A stretch of 62,700 bases of DNA from Paramecium tetraurelia (GCA_000165425.1 CT867997.1:620001-682700); one strand, 5' to 3'; shown: positions 23,844-62,440, counted from the first letter of the stretch. A program made the numbers and translations. Notes: generated from the letters alone by a model not told the origin.

Positions 23844-26801
23844 ATGAACATCGGTCAAGCAAACTGCACCATTGATGATTTTCGTCATCTATTGTAATTA
23901 TTAGAAACAAAGGAACCTTATAATTTATAGCTTTAACTCAAATAAGGTTAATCTAACCATTATTTTTTAGCTCAACTCCTACACAAAATGTAAAATTACG
24001 AATAAGCTATGTTTCATTATGATAAAGCACTTAAAATAGATCCAAACAACTTTTAAATTTATCTTGATAAAGGTTTCACCCTAAGTAATTATTTCTAGCA
24101 AAAACTTTATTTTAATTGAAACTTTTTACAGAAGCTATTGAATGCATAGAGTTAGCAGATAGGAGAAGCACAAATAATCCTTTTGTTTATCTTACAAAAG
24201 GTATTCAAACTTTGTCTAACTAAAAAAGGATTGTTCCTTGAATTATTACATTAGCCAGAAGATGCTCTCGATGTTTATAATAAAGCCCTAAACTATGCTA
24301 GATACAACTAGGATATTCCAATAGCAAAAGGTTTGAAATAATTTAATTATAGCTAATCTTCTATATAAATTAAATAAATTCGATGAGGCTATTAATACTA
24401 TGAACGAAGCTATTGCTCAAGATCCTTACAATTTAGATCTATTAAAATTTAAAGTGAAGTTATTAGTCTTAATGAATAATATTGAAGAGGCAATGATTAA
24501 TATTTAAGAAGTAACAAAATTAGATCCAGAATTTTCAACTTCAAAAATTGATAATTTGTTTATTTAGAATTTAGAAGATTAGAAATAATTATAAGAACTA
24601 TATTCAATCTAAGTTTATGGTTATGAAGTATATCTTCTGAAGGGTATAAATTAAAAATAATTATAGCTTTTGTTTTACATGGCTTGCAAAAATATGATGA
24701 AGTTATTGAATGCTTTAATGAAGCTATAGCGAAATTTCCAAATCATAGAGAAATCTATCTTGAAAAAGGTAAATTGTACTTAATTTCAATAGCAACTTAT
24801 CTAAGTTAATTATTTAAGTTTGATCAGTCAAATTAATGTTATGATCAAGTAATTGATAATTTTCCTGCTGATTCTCATATATATTTAAAGAAGGGTAACA
24901 ATGATTAAAATATTAAATCAAATAGGCTAAAACTTAATTTCACAACATAAATATTAGCCGGCTTTGGTACTCTATGATGAAGCAATTGGAAAATTAGATA
25001 ATAATTTAGATTTATTAATTGCTAAAGGTATTCTCTGAGATAATTTGATTAGCTCAGCTGTTAGGAAAATTGCATATGTATGTTACAGCTATGAAGTGTT
25101 TTGAATAAGCAATTAAATAGTTTCCTTGCAAATTTGAATCCTACTATCATCAAGGTAATCAAATAACAAATCTAAGGCGACTTTTTAATTAAATGGAATA
25201 AGTATTCTGAGGCAATAGAATCTTACTCAAAAGCTATTCTATATTCTCCCAATAATCATGAGATTTACAATAAAATCAGTAAATTTAATATATATTTGAT
25301 TAGTTACTACTCTAATTTAAATAAAAAGAAAAACAGAAGCTTTTAAATTATTCAAAGAGGCATCCCTAAAGTTTCCTTATGAATTCAATATACAAATAAG
25401 TCTATGTATATTATTTATTTATTTATTTAGTAAAACAACTAACCTCTTCAGTTAATATGTTCGAAGCCATAGAACAGGAGAATCTTATTTTAAGACTTGA
25501 TGCTAATAATCACTTACCCAACTTAGCAAAAGGTGTAGTCTATCTGCTATAATTAAGGCATTCTCCTAGATTTTTGGGCTCTTGGAGATTAAGCGATTGA
25601 GCAAGTGGGTAGAGCTATTGTTTAAAACCCTTACTTTACTTATTCGTACATCCAAAGGAGTAACAAATTCAACATTTTAGGTCATTTGATAATTTAGTAG
25701 AATGATATCGATTAAAATATAGAATATTTAGATTAAGCTCTATTGATTGATCCTTATAACTCTGAAATCTATATTAGAAAAGGTAATATTAATAGCAAAT
25801 TAATAGCTGATACTTTATTAGAAGCATCCAGATACACTGAGGCATTAGATTGCTTAGAGATAGCTCTATAGAGAGCAAAATATGATGAAAACATTGTTAA
25901 ACGGTAAGGTAAAAAAATAGTAAATGGTAGTTGAAACAATAAGAGATTCTGAAATTGATATTAATTTAGTTGATTGTTATGAGAGAGTGTTGAAAATGAA
26001 TCCATACCAAATAGAGTTCTATTTTGGTAAAGGTAAAATACATAAATTAAAAATATAGGAAAGGTTTTGTTCAGATAACTGGATTATGAGAAAGCATTAA
26101 GTTGTTATGATTAAGTTATAAAAATAAATCCATTTTAAATTGATGCATTTTTACCAAAAGGTAGATTGTAAAATAAGAATAGCTTTACAATTACATTATT
26201 TAAATTATTACGATAAAGAGATCTCTCAATATGAGATAGCAATATCGATAGACCCTACAAATTGTGATGTTTTTGAAAAGAAGGGTAAATTTTATTCATA
26301 CAGACAGCGTTTACCTTAGCTAATTTAAATCGATTAGAAGAAGGAATTTAATGTTTCAATGAGGGAATTAAATTAAATCCACACAATAAAGAAATTTATC
26401 TTTAAAAAGGTAGGAGTTATTTATTTATTAAATAGCTGAATTTTTAAATATCTATGATAGAAGATAAGAAGCTATCCAATGTTATGATGATGCAATTTTG
26501 GCATCAATAAACGATCCTTAGATCTACTAAAAAAAAGGTAGAATCTATATTAATACATAGGTGCATTGTTACTCAAAGAAGAGAGAGCGTATGAAGCTAT
26601 GCTATGTTACAATACAGTTTTAGCAGCATTTCCTCAGATGACCAAAAGTTATAGATATAAAGGTAGATGAGATTCGAATATTTAGGAATTTGTTTATTTT
26701 TGTAGCAAGATTTGAGAAAAGTCATTTAATATATAAGATTATTTTCAATATTTGACAATTAATAAAACTATTCAGTTGAAGAGATTAAAGAAAAGTTTTG
26801 A
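23844..26801 (+). CDS. TPR-repeat protein (over 20 repeats, 21 introns)
   Basis: Recurrent 34-aa units such as YEQAMFHYDKALKIDPNNFQIYLDK and YEKALSCYDQVIKINP, in register with the exon boundaries. Confidence 0.9.
23947..26685 (+). repeat. periodic array of 102-nt exons and 21-31-nt phase-1 introns
   Basis: Donors at 23947, 24073, 24201, 24331, 24644, 24769, 24895, 25028 and on to 26663, about 125 nt apart. Six exons I counted exactly are each 102 nt. Confidence 0.88.
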
Positions 26802-26830
26802 TGAATCATATATAATTAATAATTACAAAT

Positions 26831-29600
26831 TCACCTTAAGATAATAAATGTTGATATGAATTGGGGTTGAACTTAGAATTAGTTTACTTAAGTTTAACTT
26901 TTTGTTTTATTGAGTTTATACCAGTCTATTATAAATAATTGATTGAATACTTAATTTAGAAGATTACCATTCTTCAATTGTCATCAATCCATTCATGGTA
27001 GTTTAATAATATTGGACACTTTTAGGGAATTCGAAATCGATGTCACCTACTTCTTACAAATTATGTATTCTCACAATGAAGTATTGTGACTTAGGTTCAA
27101 TCCTTACTTTAGATATTGAATCTTCATCTAAAACTACAATCTCATCAAGATAACTTTCTGGAATGACTTTATTTTTTTAGATATTGAATTTAGAAGAGAA
27201 ATCTTCTGCGAAATATTTGAGACCTATCATATCTTCTCTTAATTAGATTCTTCTGGCTTAGTTTGGATCTTAGGTATTATCAAAAAAGATGAGTTGGTGA
27301 AGTAAAGTTTAAGAGATTCCTTTTTTTTATTTGCATGAATTAGTTTGTTAGCATTTTGGATCCTCAATATCTTCCTTTAAAGCTTCACCAACTCCCCTTC
27401 TATCATCAGTTCCGATTCTTCTCTAAATCATTAATTCAATTTGCCCTTGGTTTAAACTTGTGCCACCTTAAGATCTATCATTAATAACTGCAACAGATTA
27501 ACCATTAGTTTAATTTAGCAATATCATATTTGTTACTGGATAGTAGTTTTGTGAAACAGGTTCAGTACTGATTAAGTTAAAAGTCTCTCTAAAGTTCTTA
27601 ACTCTCTTTTGTAAATCCAACCCATTGCTATCGGTATAAAATATATCATTGTTTTATATTCCAGTGTCGATTAACATTACTACTTCCTTACCTGATCTAT
27701 CGATGAAATCAACTGAATTTAGAAACGTCTCTATTTCGTATTCATCTTTTAAATGTTGATATTTTCTAATTTTAGTTACTACATCGCTTCTCTTAATAAT
27801 TAACTCAGTTACAATGTCATTATAATGTATTGAAGAGTGTGTAATGCTACCATAAGGATTAAGTTATCCATCAGGTCTAAAAATATAGGCTCCACTTGGC
27901 TATCTATATTCAGAAGAAGATTTATAATAAGCATATTTTAATTTAAAAGAGTTGGTAGTTATTGTTTAAGGATTTAGGATTGTAGATAGATCACTATCAT
28001 CATTGAGAGTAATTTCAATTCTTTTTGTATTAGCAGGATGCTTGTCATTTGATGGTATTATTTTGTAAAATTGAGTTTCTTCGATATTGTCTTCATCAAC
28101 AATGAAGTATAATACACAATCTTGATTATCACATAATAAAGTGCAATTGAGAGATACATTGTTTTCATCTAAGACTGTATAATGAAGATTTGGAACTGGT
28201 AATTTAATGATCTTATTTTGATTCATCAGTAAGGCTAAGAGTACTGTTTTGTTTGAATTTAACCACACATCTAATTATTTACATTCAGATATAGTTTTAT
28301 TGTAATAACATGTGTGAAATTCATAATTCTTATAATCTAATACTTATTCAGCTAAAATTGAGACATGTTTTCTCATGTATTAATCCAAAAGGGCTGATGA
28401 TTATTGTAATAATTTTATGTAATCATCATTAACAAATTATTTTGCAGTTCCAGTAATTGCATCATGGTGTTATACAATACCCATATTTTAATTATGATTC
28501 TATAATAGTTACAATAATTCATCCTCATCCTTAATGTTATTATATGAAATTTATTTGGATAAGAAAGTTTTTATTTGTTGGAATTCCTTACTTAGTTATC
28601 TAACATACCCTTTAAAACTAATTCTGGAAGTATAATAACCAGTCCAGTAGGATTGATAATTATCTGAGTAGGGAAAGAAATCATCAAATTTAACAGAATA
28701 TGATAATTGTTATTGATTTAATCTTTTTAAATACTAATGGGGTGTTGAAAATTGAATTTATGCTGTACTATTCCTCTTATTGATATTATCAATGACCTTT
28801 TCAATATTTTTGAAATAGCTTTCTGCAGATGACCATTCATTGTCATCCCCTAAAGTATGTACTATCGTTTCACCTTAATAAAAAGCAGCTTACTATCCAA
28901 AATATTCTAGTAATTAATTTGCTTTTTAATTGATTTGATTTGATTATATTTCAGGTGAAGATCTCAACGGATCAAAATCAAACCCTGGAGGACTAGAATA
29001 ATGTCTATAATTGATATGGCAGAATAATTCAATTCCTGGTTTTGGATTCCATATAAATTCCAAGGTTTTATTCTTTAATCTCTCTGATTTATCTATCTAA
29101 TCAATCCTAGCAAAATATTATCCATCCATTCCCATCATATAGGAAATGTAAGCAAAAGTTGATGAATGTCCAAAAGGATCAATTTACCAACCTACTCTTG
29201 GAATTATTCGAAATTGTTCATATAAGTATGTATGACCTCCAGTGAATGAGTCGATTATATCTTCATAATAAGTTGTGGCTTCATCATTCATCGACCAACC
29301 TCCAGCTGCAAACTCTAATTATCCATTAATGATCAATTGCTTAATCTTTTATTTAATATCAATATCTTATTCTTCGTACCATTTTTTAAAATATATCGTT
29401 TCAACCTGCACAAATCTTCTTCCTGAATCCTTTAATAAAGCAGTTGAATATGATGATATAATATTTTTCACTCCTGGTCCAAATTCATAGATGTTCCATA
29501 CTGTATCCAACCAACCAACATCATCATGAGAATGAGGCAAAAAATAAATCACTTTCGATTCTACTTATTATAAATGTAATAAGCAAAACAATATAAACAT
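26831..29600 (-). CDS. lysosomal alpha-mannosidase (GH38)
   Basis: Signal peptide, PHSHDDVGW, GGWSMNDEA, GWQIDPFGHS (nucleophile Asp), YWTGYYTSR, QHHDAITGT and FYTDSNG. Confidence 0.95.
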
Positions 29601-29985
29601 TAAAATAATAATTAATTACTTTATTATCTAAAATAATCTCTTAAGGGATCAGACTCTTTTTAAACTCTTATAACTCTCCTTTATTATCATTCTCAAGAGA
29701 TTTAATTGTTTTAATTTAGAAATCAAAAGACAATAAAATTTAAAATTAAATATTGATGTGTAGTTATTTTTTAATAGTAAATAACTGAAAGTCAATAAAA
29801 TTATGTAATCCCATTATTATCTTTAATTATCCACTTAATAACAACATAATTATTAACAAAATTGAACTTAAATTATGATGGAATTATGATTTGATATCTC
29901 ATACGATCTTTTTTATGGAAAGATCTATTTATCAATAAAGGATTTCTAATATATAACATAAATAAACTAAACTCTAATACATTAC

Positions 29986-54479: not shown

Positions 54480-57400
54480 ATGCAATAATGTAAATGTATT
54501 TCATGATGATTAGATGATGGAATTGATGAAATTATTTAATTAAATTCATAGACCTAGGAAAAAATTTAAAATTAGAGTGAGGCTGAAAATTTTTCAAAAA
54601 TAAAAGATGGGCTTGATGAATTTTTAGAACTTGTTTGTGATAATATATTATAAAATGAGGAAGAAATAAATGATTATCTGAATGATAATATACTTATAAA
54701 TTTGAATGCCTAAGATAAAAGGAAGGCAATATAATATTTGTTTGGTTTTAAGTAGGGTAATACCAAACTCGACTTTTTAAATAACATCTTGGATTAAAAT
54801 TGCGAAGAACAATTTAATAAATCACCTGAATTAAATGAAAATTAATATTATTTAGATGCTCGTAAAAATAAAGAATACAGTAATATATTAAATAAACTTA
54901 CTAATGACAAATTCATCTTAGTCAATAAGATTCCATCTTAGATAGCCTCTAGTAAGGACTTTCTTGAGAGAATATTAAATACTCAACTCTAAAAAGTACA
55001 TCTACTATTTGATTATAATGAATATTAGTAAGGATTAAAATAACTAACTTAAATTGAACTTATAAACATTCTTTCATAATTTATCGATGATACTGATGAA
55101 AAGTTACAATAAATTATTGGATCTATTTCCATACGTTAATGCTCTTAATTTTAGACCTATAATGATTGGATCTAAGAATAAGAATAAAATCTATTTACAA
55201 CTTAATAAAATTAGAAATTCTTAAATGAACTTCTTTGTTTAGATCTAATTAAAATATAGAAAGACTTAATTACATTCATATCATAATAAATTGGAAAACT
55301 TAATCATAGTGATCTAAATAAAAAAAAAAATTAATAATAAGGGGTATTAAGAATTTTTTAAGAAACCCTAAAGATGTAAATTTGTTGTAATTTGTCACTA
55401 GATTAAATATATTTTGCAATAACTTTTTATTTTTGGATAAAGCATCATAATAAGATTGTTAAATTTCATTAAGAAATCTCAAAACCATTAGGATAAGTTA
55501 CAGATAAAAAAAAGGAAAATGTTCTTCAAACGAAATTAAAATAGTATAAAAAAGAAAATAAAGAATAAGATTCCATTCATAATTTCTTGATGGATAAAAT
55601 CATTTTTTACAAATCTGATCAATAATAATTTTTAAAGCCAAATTAACAAGAAAGAAATTCAAATGATTATTAAGTCTAAAATATTTCAAACTACTTTTCA
55701 AAAATATTTAATTAATGCTTTAATATGGATTCGAAAATGGCTGATGGAATGGATTAACAATCCAATTTCATTCAATTTTTGAATCAACTTCAAGAGTTTC
55801 ATTTTTACCAAACTTAGATTTGATGAAAATAATTAAGGCTTAAAGAATTTTATTTTAAATACTTTGGATTAACTCTCAAAAATGATAGTATTTTTGAAAT
55901 TTTAAAATATATTCCTAATTCGGAATCAGAATTAATTATTTTTTTGCATATGCTTTAAGATTTAAATAAGAGAATGGATTATATATTATATTATTTAATA
56001 CTAGATATTTTGGAACTTATCATAATGAAAGATACCACTAAATGTTAGAATGTCAAAATTTTTAGAGATTAATTTGAAGATTTATAATCATTCCTATGTA
56101 TTGAGAATTGTATCAAACTTAAATCTATTATTTTTAAAAATTCTCTATTTAATTTAGATGAATGTACCAATATATTAAAGGAAATTTTTAATGAAGTGTA
56201 TATCAAATTTAAAGAGGGTTCGTCAGAAAAATAAAGGAATTTTTAGTTTTTAGTAACTCTTGGTGGAAAAGATTATGGGAATCAATTTTTGATGTTATTT
56301 CATTGCTTTAAAAATAAGGATATCCAAAACTAAATTATTAATATTGTAATCAGAATTTAATTTTTCAAGAAAAATAGAAATTTAGATATGTTTAAATAAT
56401 GTTGTAATGACCTTTTTATGTTAGATGAGGGAATTTATGATAAATGTTATGAATAATTTAATGATATTACTGAATTTTAAATTACACCTTAATTCTTTCA
56501 ACATAAGAAAATACATGGAAGCTATCCTACTAAAATCAATATATCAATTGAATAATTTATTCTATCTAGAACTGAATAGAAAAAAAACAATTAAATAATA
56601 AAATGGGTATCTAATTTAAATAACTGTGAATATTTTTTGTCTCTTCTTCCTTTTTTATTTGATATTATTAAAAGAGGAGAATCAATTGAGCCTTTGCTTG
56701 ATTAAGTCAATAAAAATACAGGTATCGAAAACATAGAATTTATGAATTTCAAAGTTATCTTTTAAATTTTATATAATAATTCCGATAAATAGCTGCAAAT
56801 CCTACTATTAAAAAACTTATCCTATAATTATCCTATTCCCTTTGTTTATTAAAATCCCAATTTAGATAATATCCAAGTGGAAGCAGATTTATATTTGATT
56901 AATCCTAATATTTATTTCTTATTATAAAAACAATACAGCATTATTAACGTTTCTTTCAGTAAATTGTAAACTTAAATTGGTAAGACTTAATTAATTAATA
57001 GCGTATTTTATCGAAAAGATAAATTTAATATTTAAGATACTAATAATTTAAATAGAAATACTATCGATCTGATGCTGGATAAGGAATTCAATGGATCTAG
57101 AAATTTACTAATTGCTGACGCTCATGGGTATATTCCATAAAGCTTGTTGTTGAAAATTTTGCCATTATTTAGTTTTTGGATAATATAGATGGACACTGAG
57201 GAAGAATTAAAAGAGAATCTTGAATAAATTAAAAACTTAAATAAAAAATTCAAAATAATAAATCATAAGATTCTATTTATTGTTAGAAACTCAAAAAGTA
57301 AATAAATTGACTAATCTCTCCAAGAAGAATTAAACAAAAATTATATCTAACTCTACTAAATTCAAAATTTATCTTCAAAAGGTATAAACAATTAGTTGAT

Positions 57401-60400
57401 TTATTAACAAATTAAGCTTTTGCAGGAATAAATTTTTAATTAGATTGCGAATCATGAGGAATTCAAGCCATTTAATTAAGAAAATTTTATTTAGATCTTA
57501 AGAACTGAGGACCAAGAAGAATTATAAAAGTTAAATATTTTATTATAAGAAATCAAAGATGAAGCAGAAATATATTTTAATGATACAAAAGGATTTTACA
57601 ACTCAAAAGCATTTCCTTTAAGATATTTTGATAAAATTATAAAAGAATTGCAGGAAGAGGAATCACAACTTTTTGAAGTCTCACAATTTTGTTTAACATA
57701 GGAAATACATCAACTTTAGTAAAAAATTCAAAATTATTAAAATTTTTTAAAATAACAAAATCCAAGTAAGCTATTAAAATTATTTAAATAATTAATTTGT
57801 TTTGAAAATTATAGTTCATACATTACTTTAATCTAAGTTATCTCTGATTTGACTAGAGAATCTACTTAAAAATTATAGATAATAAATTCTGATTTATTAG
57901 ATAAACTTCAAGTTTAAAAATTAGAAAATAGAGAAGATAAAGAAGGGCTAAAAAAATTAAAATAATATTTTGAAGAATGTGAAAAAGAACTTTAATCTAA
58001 AAGTCTTAATATTGATATATTTTGGAGAGAACATATCAAGCATTGTTTTTAAATAAATTAATGCCAAGAAGTCGCAGATTAAATAGTAAAATTATTAATG
58101 AAAGGTGAAGCATTTGAACTTTTAGATGGAGAATAATTAATAATGAATATTGGTTTTTTTGAACTTATAGTAAAATGTTTTGAAAAAATAAGTAAAAATA
58201 ATAAAATTCTTGTTATTGGAATTTTGGGACCTTAAAGCTCAGGCAAATCTACGATCTTAAACAAGATTTTTGGATGCCATTTTTTCTCGAGCGTAGGAAA
58301 ATCAACTAAAGGGATATACTTTCAAATGATATAAGTTCAGAAAAATTCAATATTTGAAAATTAGTTTGATTTTATTTTAATATTAGATACAGAAGGATTA
58401 TAGAGTCCAAATTAAAAAGATCCACTATTCGATAAAAGGATTTCCCTATTTATATTTGCTATCTGTGATATTATTTTAATTAATGTGAAGGGTGAGATTA
58501 ATTCTTAATTTAAAAATCTTGTTGAAATATGTATTTATTCTTTGGCTTAAATTTAAAATGCATTATCAAATACAAAATAAATTAGTTGGTGTTTTAACCA
58601 AAATATTGATACTTCAAATAAATCGCCATTTATTGAACAATTAACTTAATTAACAAAATAATTATTCGATGATAACGGGTAATTTGGAAAAAATAAAGAT
58701 AAATAATAGGATATCTTAGAATTAATAGAAATTAAAAAGGAAAATATCCAAATTTTAAGTACTACAACAACAATGGAAACCTGGAATATCGAAGGATTAC
58801 AATAATTTTGGACATAACTTATTCCAAATGAATCATATTCTAAAGATGCTTACAAATATGGTATATAATTGATACACAATTATTTTGAAAAGTGCCAAAA
58901 AAAATAGTAAAGTTTTTGTGGATAACTACTAGAAAATTTTTTTTTAAATTCATATAAAATGTGGGAAACTATTTCAAAATTACCAGATCTATTGGAATTT
59001 TCAGAATTGATTTCATTATAATAAAACTAACTAATTTCAAAATTTTATTATCAACTTTGGAATGAAAATAAATTAACATTCAAATCTTAAATATCAACCC
59101 TAATAAAACAGAAAATCGAATAGCTTAATTTTGATTTAAATTTCAAGCATTTATAAGAAATTTAATAGGAATTAGAATTAAAGTTATCGATAGAATGCAA
59201 AATAATAAATAAAAAGATTGAAGAAAAGCTAAATTAATTCAAAGAGGAAAAAAACATTTAAAAAAACATATATTAAAAATTTATAATTAAATTATAAAAT
59301 GAAATTCATAACCTTTAAACAGAATGTAATTTTTTTATAAATGAGTAAATTAAAAATTAAGAAATCGAATATTAAATACGTCGAGGTTTTGGTGAAATTA
59401 ATAAGTACATCAATTAATTAAGTCCAGAAATTAGAACCTAATTACAAAATGATGAAACATTATTGTAAAATTAATTCAATATCATTTGGGAAAAAATAAA
59501 AATTTAATAATTATAGTAAAGAAAAGTCAAATTTGATGAAATTTAAACTGCATCTCTTAAATAAATCAAAAGCTATTTTTAGGAATATTAGTTAACTTTT
59601 CACAAAGATAGTAACTTTTAAAGTTTTTTTCATGAAAAAATAAATAAAATTGATCAGAAAGAAGAAGAAAAAGACAAAATTTTTTTGTAATACTAAGAAA
59701 TACTAATGCAAAATTAATTTACAAAATTGCCAAAAGAGGACTTCTATCATATAAATTTTGAAATACTGGGCTTTGATTAAAAAATTGAAAAGTCTTAAGG
59801 CTCGTTCTTATCTTTAGATAAACTATTTTAAGTAAATTATAATATAAATTATGTACTTAATAGAGAACTAAAACAATATTTTTAAAATTATTTTTAAGAA
59901 GATCTTTAAAAAGCTAAAAAGCTTGAAAAGATTTAGGATTTATTGCAAATCCTTGACTTATTTTAAGTGGGGTATGATTAAATTAGCAAAAATAAAATCC
60001 TTTAATTATTTAACAAAGACTAAAAAGAATATTAAAATTCTTGTTCCTAATTTACATAAACATTTAAGTTTAATGATTTAGATCGATAACGTAAATTTTA
60101 AAAATTGGATCTAAATTTATTAGAAAAATTGAAAAAATCAAAATTAAAATTTTATTAAAGAAAAATCTAGGATACAGAAATAAATGATTTCAGAAAAGAA
60201 AATATAATTATATCGTAAGCATGTGATAATGTAGTAAGTAAAGAATTTAGCAGCAAATATTGCGTTTATATTAGCAATCCTCAAAAATACCGTTTTGCTG
60301 AGTCTTTTCAAGTAGAGTTTAATTAAATGGTTAATAAAAATCGAATATGGAATAAAATTTATTCTGAGATATATGATAAAATAAAAACCTCAATATTGGA

Positions 60401-62440
60401 ATTAGCAGAGAATACAGAAATTATCTCAAAAGACATAATTCAAGGAGTGATGCAATAAATATGCGATTTTAGTGAAAATCGTTACAAACCGTAATTTTCT
60501 TTATATGGCCTTTAATTATCTGATATGGGATAAAGATGCATCTATTATTACAGTTTGCACATAATTTGGAGATTTTATTGTTTAAAGATTTGGAAAAAGT
60601 TTGAAGAAAATTAAAAGTTAGTTGAGAATAGCAAGAATGATTAATGGGAATCTTTCAAACTTGAGATACATTAGCATAAATTTAAATTAAGCATGTAAAA
60701 AGGTAAATTGCTTGCTAATTATTTGATTGAAAAGTCTCAATAGATTTTTTATTTAGATAAGAGAATTGAAATTGAAGATTTTCTTAAGAGAGAGCTAAAA
60801 AAAAATGAAAATTTAGTAAAGTACTTGGATGATAAAATAATTACAAAAAGGTAAAAAATTGAACTATTAAATGAGATGACAGATTAGGAATAAGTTATGG
60901 AATATCTGACAAATTAATTGAACTTTATTTAATCATATGTAGAAAAATATATAAAGCATATAACAAAATAAATTTAATTACAATACTAAGAATCATTTAA
61001 TCAAGAATTAAGAATTATTTTTCACAGAGTAGAGACAAATGCTAAAAAATTATTAAAAAGCCTTCCCTATTATCCAAGTGTTGAAAACTATTTTGAGAAT
61101 TCTATTAAATCTAAATTCTATAAAATTAAAGATGAAGATTAAAAGAAAAAACAAGAAAACATTCTTGAAATCAAATTATTTAATTTAGTTTTTCAGTACC
61201 TTTTGGAATATGAATAAAAATAGGAAGAAATCGAAGAAATTGATGATTAATACAAAGATTGCTTTATTCATAACTATAAGCGAAAATAAAATATATTAAT
61301 AAACTAGAGGAATGAAATGGATAACTAAATAAATCAAATTCAACCATTTTTATAATCCTTACTTGATAACCTATAATTAGTCAGTTCAATTAACTTTGAC
61401 CTAACTTAACTGCTCATTTAAGAAAGCTTGAACTCATTAAAATTGGCTATGATTGGATGTACTCATTGTTGTCCAATGTGTAATCGTAAATGTGATTCCG
61501 AACCTGAATTTCTCCCTCATTCATGTTAAAATGGTCATTACTTAAGAGGTATTTCTTTATTAAATCTCAGGGATGAATGGTATACTGTTAGGAAATAAGC
61601 CATAATTACAGAGTTGCGAAGAAATAAAAGATGATTAAATCATTGATATCCTTGAAACTAAAAAGCAGATGAAATGGAAAGAAATTAAGAAAATATATCA
61701 AAAATGGAATTTTGCAAGCGTAAGTGTAAATACAAAAATACTTAAGGAAAATAAATTGAAATTGATCAAAATTTGGAATGATGGAATTGGAAACTTAATA
61801 TGCACAAAATTAAGTTAAACATTTAATACCAAAATTTATTATAATACAAGGGAACAATAGGAAATCTTCTATCTTTTTATACTTGATGACTCCTTTTCAA
61901 TGGAAGGAAAAAAAGGAGATGAAATGATGGAAAGCTTAAGATAATAACTCAAATTTCTGAAATCAAATAAATATGCTAAAGTGAGTGTAATTTCATTCAA
62001 TTATAAAGCCTCATTGTAAATAGAATTTAAAAAGCCAAAAGCAAAATTGATTAAATAAATTACGTTAGTAGGAGGAATTACAAATTTTGACCCACCTCTC
62101 AAATTATGTTTAGATTAAATACTAAAATATGAAAAAAAAATTGATTAGTAAAAATTTATATAAACCTAGAGCATATATCCTCCTTTATTCTGATGGGGAA
62201 GGTTCATATCCTCAATAGAGTTTAGCTGAATATATAACATTAAGTTAAGAATTAAGAAATAAAATATCATTTCTGATTTGTACAGCTGGGAGTAAACCTC
62301 AAACTCTACTTAAAATGATTTAGCAATTAACACTTGCATTTCACAAGGTAGAATTGAAGAAAAACATTTAAAGCTCAGATCTGAGTAAATGTTGGAATGA
62401 AATATTAATTAAAACTTGCTAGATGACCACAACTGAATGA
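54480..62440 (+). CDS. very large GTPase (VLIG/GVIN/URGCP-type G domain) with C-terminal vWA domain, about 2600 aa
   Basis: GEAFELLDGE, IGILGPQSSGKSTILN, SVGKSTKG, LDTEGLQS, FDKRISLF, GCTHCCPMCNRKC and the vWA motifs FILDDSFSM/GGITNF/YSDGEG. One frame is kept from 54516 to 61548 apart from TGA-TGA at 55821-55826. Confidence 0.85.

Follow-up and report, generated by a model that had tools for sequence, protein, structure and literature searches.

A Paramecium tetraurelia tetratricopeptide repeat gene with an intron and a germline IES at fixed positions of almost every 34-codon unit

A 62,700-nucleotide (nt) stretch of Paramecium tetraurelia DNA (GCA_000165425.1 CT867997.1:620001-682700), which we call the window, holds at positions 23844-26801 of the + strand a gene for a tetratricopeptide repeat (TPR) protein that is interrupted at two regular places in almost every repeat. 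One interruption is a tiny intron that is removed from RNA, and the other is an internal eliminated sequence (IES) that is removed from germline DNA. The repeating germline module is exon plus intron plus IES, and we consider it likely that the array arose by amplification of one such module. An earlier note, made from the sequence alone, had read the gene as a modular TPR array grown by exon duplication, possibly still diversifying and a candidate for exon skipping; overall, that interpretation is partly supported by our analysis.

Exon-intron anatomy and splicing

The GC content of the window ranges from 0.21 to 0.34, TAA and TAG triplets occur within clear coding frames, and GT..AG interruptions of ~25 nt are found. 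We therefore built the gene model on the + strand under genetic code 6, in which TAA and TAG encode glutamine and TGA is the stop. The coding sequence (CDS) runs from an ATG at 23844 to a TGA at 26799-26801 through 22 exons and 21 GT..AG introns (Table 1), and its spliced length of 2,448 nt gives an open frame of 815 amino acids. The introns measure 21-31 nt each and 510 nt summed, all 21 of them lie in phase 1, and 19 exons (exons 2-4 and 6-21) are exactly 102 nt long, with exons 1, 5, and 22 at 103, 291, and 116 nt, respectively. An AG/GT context (the slash marks the splice site) is present at 18 of the 21 junctions, with exon-side flanks of AAAG (12 junctions), AAGG (3), TAAG (2), and CAAG (1), while the three remaining flanks, ATCA, CTAT, and AGGA, lack AG/G. 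Seventeen introns start with GTA, and the same number end with TAG.

Given that 17 of the 21 introns have a length that is not a multiple of three, no single frame reads through the gene without splicing. A hidden Markov model (HMM) of the repeat unit gave a full 34-residue match in each exon, with frames shifting as the gene model predicts, and no match outside the exons of this gene across the whole window. A search for the open path with the fewest introns returned one with nine, which we rejected: introns are taken as coding in it and the 34-residue period is lost, a period that is backed by the unit HMM, by RNA contigs, and by a published gene table discussed below.

Four introns (1, 6, 13, and 14) have lengths that are multiples of three (3n) and are free of in-frame TGA triplets. 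Retained copies of these introns would be read through by the ribosome and so would evade nonsense-mediated decay; 3n stop-free introns are, as a class, depleted genome-wide (review, PMC11334263).

Two RNA contigs of one run (X20) leave out intron 9 (22 nt) and intron 20 (23 nt), respectively, and show no other differences from the window. One of them extends beyond exons 9 and 10 on their outer sides, by 5 and 7 letters, respectively, which would be expected if introns 8 and 10 were also spliced. In a stranded oligo-dT library, all 40 reads (58 nt) were oriented as a + strand transcript, and no splice joints were listed among these raw reads. From two further runs (X17 and X18) came nothing but short pieces, among them two conserved stretches of other expressed TPR genes. 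At 24112-24144 and 26092-26132, RNA contigs from three runs match for 33-41 nt with 3-4 mismatches and then continue into unlike sequence; these contigs represent transcripts of other TPR genes, which are expressed more strongly and have a conserved stretch of the unit in common with this gene. The published abundance for the gene, in the part of the source available, is 0.21 and 0.22 transcripts per million, and we conclude that it is an ordinary expressed macronuclear gene, weakly transcribed.

One TPR period per exon

Pieces of the exons passed the Pfam cut-offs for TPR_2 (29.2 and 28.8 bits; cut-off, 27), TPR_19 (28.9; 25), TPR_8 (27.3; 25.7), and TPR_14 (27.0 and 26.1; 23.5). Since the first whole codon of the exon aligns to position 9 of the TPR profile, the codon interrupted by each intron is that of TPR position 8, where helix A has its small Gly/Ala residue, and the exon borders cut helix A at that point. 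Each exon holds one 34-residue period, which begins at position 8, closes with position 7 of the following repeat, and is offset from the textbook TPR border. Among the 19 units of 102 nt, position 8 is Ala or Gly in 15 and position 11 is Leu or Ile in all 19, while Ala at position 20, Ala at position 27, and Pro at position 32 each occur in 13. The 34 N-terminal and 37 C-terminal residues that flank the array match no Pfam family.

The predicted 815-residue protein is a string of ~24 canonical 34-residue TPR units almost throughout, and it should form a continuous TPR superhelix, which may act as a protein-binding scaffold. The nearest solved chains are designed consensus-TPR superhelices, namely 8bu0_A (E = 6.5e-8) and 9qhb_A (E = 1.1e-36, for a query that read through two 3n introns). 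Such designs (PDB 8bu0, 2fo7, and 1na0) likewise string canonical 34-residue units together without a break, in support of a continuous superhelix, but they are synthetic, and the match is uninformative as to partner or function.

The anatomy described in the earlier note withstood this analysis well. It had counted 21 tiny introns, placed them after the first base of a codon and mostly at AAAG/GT-like junctions, and listed six 102-nt exons, which match our model base for base. Its reading of one TPR per exon also stands, as one 34-codon period per symmetric 1-1 exon with borders shifted to position 8, and its remark that neighboring genes have fewer introns holds for the two neighbors described below, one with a single intron and one uninterrupted.

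A germline IES in almost every repeat

The gene has been annotated before. Table S2 of Vitali, Hagen, and Catania (2019; PMC6771405), part of which was available to us and to which all statements from it refer, lists it as PTET.51.1.G0110418, "Tetratricopeptide-like helical domain," on the + strand of scaffold 11 with a CDS at 643497-646454, whose 2,958 nt equal the length of our model. Its neighbors in the table, a WD40 gene on one side and a GH38-type gene on the other, agree with those in the window. When the two coordinate systems are shifted by 619,653, all 22 listed IES points fall on a TA dinucleotide in the window, so the mapping of table to window is valid. The table flags 21 of these IESs as EXON and one as INTRON, the same as our model predicts. 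For five IESs that contain a stop codon, the published stop distance minus the spliced coordinate came by hand arithmetic to 10-61 nt, in each case no more than the length of the IES, and these distances thus fit the cumulative intron lengths of 100, 123, 250, and 510 nt in our model.

The 22 IESs in 2,958 nt amount to 7.4 per kb, and together with the introns they break the germline gene 43 times. In 19 of the 22 exons, an IES lies at column 10 of the exon, 9 nt past the 3' splice site. This homologous TA site accounts for 20 of the 22 IESs, exon 5 contributing two (columns 10 and 112, the latter being 10 + 102). The exons without a periodic IES are those without a TA there, where exon 1 reads CGG, exon 4 CTT, and exon 17 TTG. 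Before the IES table was consulted, we had seen that columns 10-11 are TA in 17 of the 19 exons of 102 nt, a pattern that is explained because the published IES points sit in that column. Within the repeat, the TA belongs to an xTA Leu/Ile codon at TPR position 11.

The 20 periodic IESs measure 26 nt (three), 27 nt (five), 28 nt (nine), 29 nt (two), and 104 nt (one). The 104-nt element, in exon 16, occupies a regular column-10 site, in contrast to the 26-29 nt of the others. Two IESs lie off the pattern, one of 84 nt in the second unit of exon 5 and one of 56 nt in intron 20.

Origin of the doubly marked array

The fixed bases at which introns and IESs recur in almost every unit favor a copied module. 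In the history that we consider likely, an ancestral module would have consisted of a 102-nt exon, a tiny phase-1 intron in the codon for position 8, and a 26-29-nt IES at the TA of the codon for position 11, and it would have been tandemly amplified in germline DNA. A long divergence may have followed, during which the 34-residue fold would have held the exons at 102 nt, splicing the introns, and IES excision the TA. Two introns would then have been precisely lost, fusing three units in exon 5, two of which keep their IES, and two units (exons 4 and 17) would have lost their IES, the freed TA mutating afterward. Making the protein takes two rounds of precise excision, of IESs from DNA at macronuclear development and of introns from RNA. 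In a bolder and improbable reading, the intron and the IES of the module, which are of similar size and 9 nt apart, would be derived one from the other in evolution.

Alternatively, an intronless TPR array might have received its introns in parallel, at Lys-Gly/Ala proto-splice sites (AAR/GSN), and its IESs at a favored TA. The protein consensus itself makes the AG/G context that is found at 18 junctions, yet that context is missing at three of the 21 introns, which nonetheless occupy the homologous base, and this argues for inheritance and not for targeting. Two features of exon 5 point the same way: its inner border reads AAA/GTG exactly at the expected place of an intron, and the IES register is kept in its second unit, which has no intron upstream. 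Intronization of exonic GTA..TAG segments is a major route of intron gain in Paramecium (review, PMC11334263), but the introns of this gene are extra to complete 34-codon units and hence are not intronized coding sequence. Similarly, although IESs always require a TA and Leu is most often encoded by TTA in this gene, parallel gain would call for ~21 intron gains and ~20 IES insertions, each independent and each hitting the homologous base, in a species whose genes have 2.3 introns on average (PMC5663052, accessible part). Given also that other TPR genes have the same period, we regard parallel gain as extremely improbable.

That shared period emerges from Table S2, in which at least 270 rows carry a tetratricopeptide description; the first 47 of these rows were covered. 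At least six other TPR genes in these rows (G1000001, G1000002, G1040080, G1040081, G1040083, and G1050154) carry short IESs in series at intervals of ~122-131 nt, in keeping with a period of 102 nt plus a tiny intron, while in six further TPR genes of the same rows, the IESs are single or unspaced. Ten IESs of G1040081 are paired with those of its whole-genome-duplication partner, G1310064, so the module arrangement of that gene is older than the duplication. P. tetraurelia TPR genes are reported to reach 10 IESs per kb, with 1,135 IESs (accessible part of Vitali et al., PMC6771405), and Arnaiz et al. (2012) ascribed IESs present in 3-6 copies to the expansion of TPR and WD40 repeats.

Divergence, relatives, and exon skipping

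The 19 units of 102 nt share on average 44% nucleotide identity (a shifted-register control gave 30%) and 23% amino acid identity, with maxima of 62% and 50%, respectively, between exons 6 and 19. We found no neighbor, block, or fixed-offset similarity among the units (absolute z scores of at most 1.5), and each unit pairs best with one of those closest to the consensus. Similarity between introns does not exceed that between controls whose cores were shuffled (3.02 versus 2.87; standard deviation, 0.19), and Tandem Repeats Finder reported no ~126-nt array in the gene. Since the units are so diverged and lack a neighbor signal, the array looks, from its sequence, old and fixed rather than actively shuffling.

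Protein searches for relatives used the 96-residue exon 5 as their only query. An exhaustive phmmer search of 1.84 billion representatives gave no match at an E value of 1e-30 or better. At an E value of 0.001 or less there were 1,975 matches, which are generic TPR proteins of 22-37% identity with a single exception, a 77-residue open reading frame (ORF) call from another assembly (P0139). Word-indexed searches returned this ORF as the sole near match and a 720-residue TPR protein (P0001) as the sole longer match; the latter has 35% identity and looks prokaryotic, and we set it aside. Likewise, 21 metagenome loci (L001-L021) with 28-41% identity are generic TPR genes and were not used. No annotated Paramecium protein in these collections contains exon 5, and the flanking GH38 protein and its orthologues are present. 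The NCBI/UniProt gene set may lack or mis-model the gene, which is present in the v2 annotation used in PMC6771405.

The P0139 ORF is colinear without gaps with the unspliced window at 24295-24525, with 10 of 12 identities in the tail of exon 4, 3 of 7 in intron 4, and 45 of 57 in exon 5. Its locus therefore keeps an intron 4 of the same length in the same place and likewise lacks one where the first and second units of exon 5 meet.

These data bear on the suggestion in the earlier note of a diversifying binding protein, which we take as a currently dynamic array that gains, shuffles, or skips exons and would resemble the young Tetrahymena leucine-rich repeat (LRR) arrays or the Ectocarpus TPR/LRR receptor candidates. 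The internal exons of the gene are all of the 1-1 type and equal in length, so that adding or removing one keeps the frame, but the divergence of the units and the absence of any neighbor or block signal, together with introns unrelated in sequence and no array visible to Tandem Repeats Finder, are not what recent duplication would leave. Some P. tetraurelia TPR repeats have recently expanded, and some TPR genes score as tandem repeats; this gene, however, shares with the P0139 locus the same intron and the same start of the fused exon. No full-length relative was found with the exon 5 query, and no ohnologue from the recent whole-genome duplication is listed in Table S2 (WGD1_GENE = NA), both of which would suit a dynamic array, whereas its low expression would not. 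We therefore judge a currently dynamic array to be very improbable.

Nor does our analysis support exon skipping, for which the earlier note had named the gene a candidate. In the accessible part of their paper, Saudemont et al. (2017; PMC5663052) found no exon skipping in P. tetraurelia and reported introns with a mean of 25.1 nt, 99.9% of them between 20 and 35 nt, a short-only mode of recognition that "precludes exon skipping." Skipping one TPR exon would take an excision of ~150 nt, and given that the spliceosome takes introns of ~20-35 nt and that no case is reported in P. tetraurelia, exon skipping in this gene is unlikely. The central proposal of the earlier note, growth by exon duplication, fared better: it is the most economical origin, and the recurrence of an IES at one and the same TA in nearly all units backs it. 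The similar family elsewhere that the note had asked for is also there, in the other TPR genes with IESs ~122-131 nt apart.

Retention of the interruptions

A further possibility is that the periodic interruptions are kept for use, with the retention of IESs or introns tuning the product through nonsense-mediated decay or in-frame insertions. Retention scores in Table S2 are near zero under most conditions, but they reach ~0.03-0.07 at 32°C for some IESs, and four IESs are marked as Dcl5 sensitive. Five periodic 27-nt IESs are flagged as making no premature stop, and the four 3n introns without an in-frame TGA could equally be read through. TPR genes as a group are over-represented in IES retention at 18 and 32°C, and Vitali et al. 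raised the prospect of active modulation, although, in the part of their paper available, they also offered a simpler cause, that IES-dense genes are excised less efficiently under stress (PMC6771405). This idea concerns the upkeep of the interruptions rather than their origin and is compatible with amplification of the module; as an explanation of the periodic pattern, we hold it to be quite improbable.

It is doubtful, too, though worth stating, that the per-repeat IES serves as a DNA-level counterpart of cassette exons in an organism unable to skip exons. If it did, 27-nt IESs retained in part of the numerous copies of the gene in the macronucleus, for example at stressful temperatures, would add 9 residues to helix A in chosen units, whereas IESs of 26, 28, and 29 nt would silence a copy, and one germline gene would yield a graded, heritable somatic set of solenoid variants.

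Weighing the proposed amplification history

Several points count against our reading of the gene as an amplified module encoding a TPR scaffold. The case for amplification is drawn from shared positions alone, with the IESs compared by position and length, and the duplication history is not recoverable from this gene, which shows no neighbor gradient, block pattern, or intron similarity. Taken by itself, the preference for xTA codons at position 11 relative to the Leu usage of the gene is modest (15/17 versus 52/87; Fisher P = 0.03). The exon 5 query found no full-length protein of the gene among 5.8 billion protein clusters, and the proposed scaffold function is argued from fold class only. 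Of the 21 introns that the earlier note had put forward, RNA directly confirms two (9 and 20) and hints at two more (8 and 10); the remaining junctions are supported by frame, motif, unit HMM, and the published model.

Set against these points is the fixed double mark itself, which speaks for copying of the introns and IESs together with the exon and accounts for the TA that is frozen in 20 units. The double mark also suggests an order of events, in which the intron and IES would have come first, amplification next, and the two intron losses and two IES losses last. The gene presents a repeat protein built from a germline module with two fixed interruptions, one removed from RNA and one from DNA.

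Neighboring genes

The TPR gene is followed by a convergent ORF at 26772-29648 on the - strand that encodes a GH38 alpha-mannosidase, which is identical at 883 of 884 residues to P. tetraurelia GSPATT00005014001 up to an intron near its 3' end; by this match, the window is P. tetraurelia macronuclear DNA. The small intron, in the region 26834-26949 (- strand), is the only one in ~2.8 kb of the gene; the ORF, read straight on, departs from the named protein beyond residue 884, and the final 29 residues of the named protein map to 26920-26834. The TGA of the TPR gene (26799-26801, +) and that of the GH38 gene (26831-26833, -) are 29 nt apart, so the 3' ends of the two genes must abut or overlap.

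Upstream, the stop of a WD40/COPB2-like gene (published CDS end, 643451, or 23798 in the window) lies 45 nt before the start codon of the TPR gene, for which the available part of the published table gives no 5' untranslated region. A second in-frame ATG at ~23811 would fall within the annotated 3' end of the WD40/COPB2-like gene. Farther away, at 55827-61634 (+), an uninterrupted ORF of 1,935 amino acids with a URGCP-like/RHD3-type GTPase domain follows directly on another long ORF (54510-55823); this GTPase ORF is very large and intron poor, in contrast to the TPR gene, the richest in introns.

Table 1. Features of the TPR gene, all on the + strand. Exons and introns follow the code 6 model, unit matches the unit HMM, and IES sites the points in Table S2; all introns are in phase 1.
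Feature	Position	Length (nt)	IES TA	Remarks
CDS, PTET.51.1.G0110418	23844..26801			scaffold 11, 643497-646454
Exon 1	23844..23946	103	none	ATG + 34 codons + 1 base; degenerate unit; CGG, no column-10 TA
Intron 1	23947..23970	24		3n, no in-frame TGA
Exon 2	23971..24072	102	23980	
Intron 2	24073..24098	26		
Exon 3	24099..24200	102	24108	
Intron 3	24201..24228	28		
Exon 4	24229..24330	102	none listed	columns 9-11 CTT, not xTA
Intron 4	24331..24352	22		position and length match in P0139 locus
Exon 5	24353..24643	291	24362, 24464, 24512	three units (34 + 34 + 29 codons), two inner introns missing; IESs at column 10, at column 112 (10 + 102), and, at 24512, of 84 nt
Intron 5	24644..24666	23		
Exon 6	24667..24768	102	24676	
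Intron 6	24769..24792	24		3n, no in-frame TGA
Exon 7	24793..24894	102	24802	
Intron 7	24895..24925	31		
Exon 8	24926..25027	102	24935	
Intron 8	25028..25052	25		RNA contig extends 5 letters past exon 9 start
Exon 9	25053..25154	102	25062	
Intron 9	25155..25176	22		left out of run X20 RNA contig
Exon 10	25177..25278	102	25186	
Intron 10	25279..25303	25		flank ATCA; RNA contig match ends at 25278, 7 letters more
Exon 11	25304..25405	102	25313	
Intron 11	25406..25430	25		flank CTAT
Exon 12	25431..25532	102	25440	
Intron 12	25533..25557	25		
Exon 13	25558..25659	102	25567	
Intron 13	25660..25680	21		3n, no in-frame TGA; flank AGGA
Exon 14	25681..25782	102	25690	ATA Ile codon
Intron 14	25783..25806	24		3n, no in-frame TGA
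Exon 15	25807..25908	102	25816	
Intron 15	25909..25930	22		
Exon 16	25931..26032	102	25940	104-nt IES
Intron 16	26033..26058	26		
Exon 17	26059..26160	102	none listed	columns 9-11 TTG, not xTA
Intron 17	26161..26182	22		
Exon 18	26183..26284	102	26192	
Intron 18	26285..26307	23		ends CAG
Exon 19	26308..26409	102	26317	
Intron 19	26410..26435	26		
Exon 20	26436..26537	102	26445	
Intron 20	26538..26560	23	26551	left out of run X20 RNA contig; 56-nt IES, flag INTRON
Exon 21	26561..26662	102	26570	
Intron 21	26663..26685	23		
Exon 22	26686..26801	116	26695	includes TGA stop; capping unit; IES at column 10

Comparison with known systems

The TPR gene opens no new kind of system, being a member of a partly described class: it is annotated, and the IES pattern of the class is in print. 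With its density of 7.4 IESs per kb and an IES at column 10 in 19 of 22 exons, it belongs to the IES-rich TPR-motif genes of P. tetraurelia (PMC6771405; for example, PTET.51.1.G1500001 in Fig. 8E). It shares with them the organism, the domain class, a high IES density (the figure given for these genes is "up to 10 IES/kb"), and IESs at the 5' end of TPR-coding exons. The exact 102 nt, the uniform phase 1, the intron in codon 8, the IES 9 nt into the exon in codon 11, and the two exons that lack both TA and IES go beyond the statements in the part of that paper available to us. Full-text literature searches found no paper stating a 102-nt phase-1 TPR exon rule in Paramecium or the 9-nt IES offset. 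What our analysis adds is this precision of length, phase, and offset, together with the evidence for inheritance.

The NB-ARC-TPR and ROCO-LRR genes of Ectocarpus (Zambounis et al. 2012; PMC3341825) likewise devote one exon of fixed 3n length to each TPR, which means that, as in the Paramecium gene, gain or loss of an exon keeps the frame. Their TPR exons, however, are 126 nt long and encode 34 residues and a linker, apart from 21 truncated exons that measure 102 nt; they are called "phase 0," and the genes carry an NB-ARC domain, dead exons within long introns, and signs of diversifying selection. The Paramecium gene has no NB-ARC domain, its exons are 102 and not 126 nt long, and its introns of 21-31 nt are too short to hold an exon, so it falls outside this group.

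An analogue in another ciliate is the set of 90-bp LRR arrays of Tetrahymena (2019, PLoS Biol, PMC6564038), and the earlier note was apt in drawing this comparison, although those exons are 90 bp long and in phase 2. As described in the accessible part of that paper, they too are solenoid repeats encoded by symmetric one-repeat exons of fixed length, every intron splits the one junction codon, and their origin is ascribed to clonal expansion of an exon unit. The Paramecium gene differs in encoding TPRs rather than LRRs, with exons of 102 rather than 90 bp and introns in phase 1 rather than phase 2. Many Tetrahymena arrays are young and retain nucleotide identity, whereas the Paramecium array is fully diverged (44% nucleotide identity), and the Tetrahymena introns are longer, with no per-exon IES described in that part of the paper. 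The gene is thus an analogue and not a member of that family. As a Paramecium counterpart to the Tetrahymena LRR arrays, it suggests that ciliates repeatedly evolve arrays of fixed-length symmetric exons in genes for solenoid proteins.

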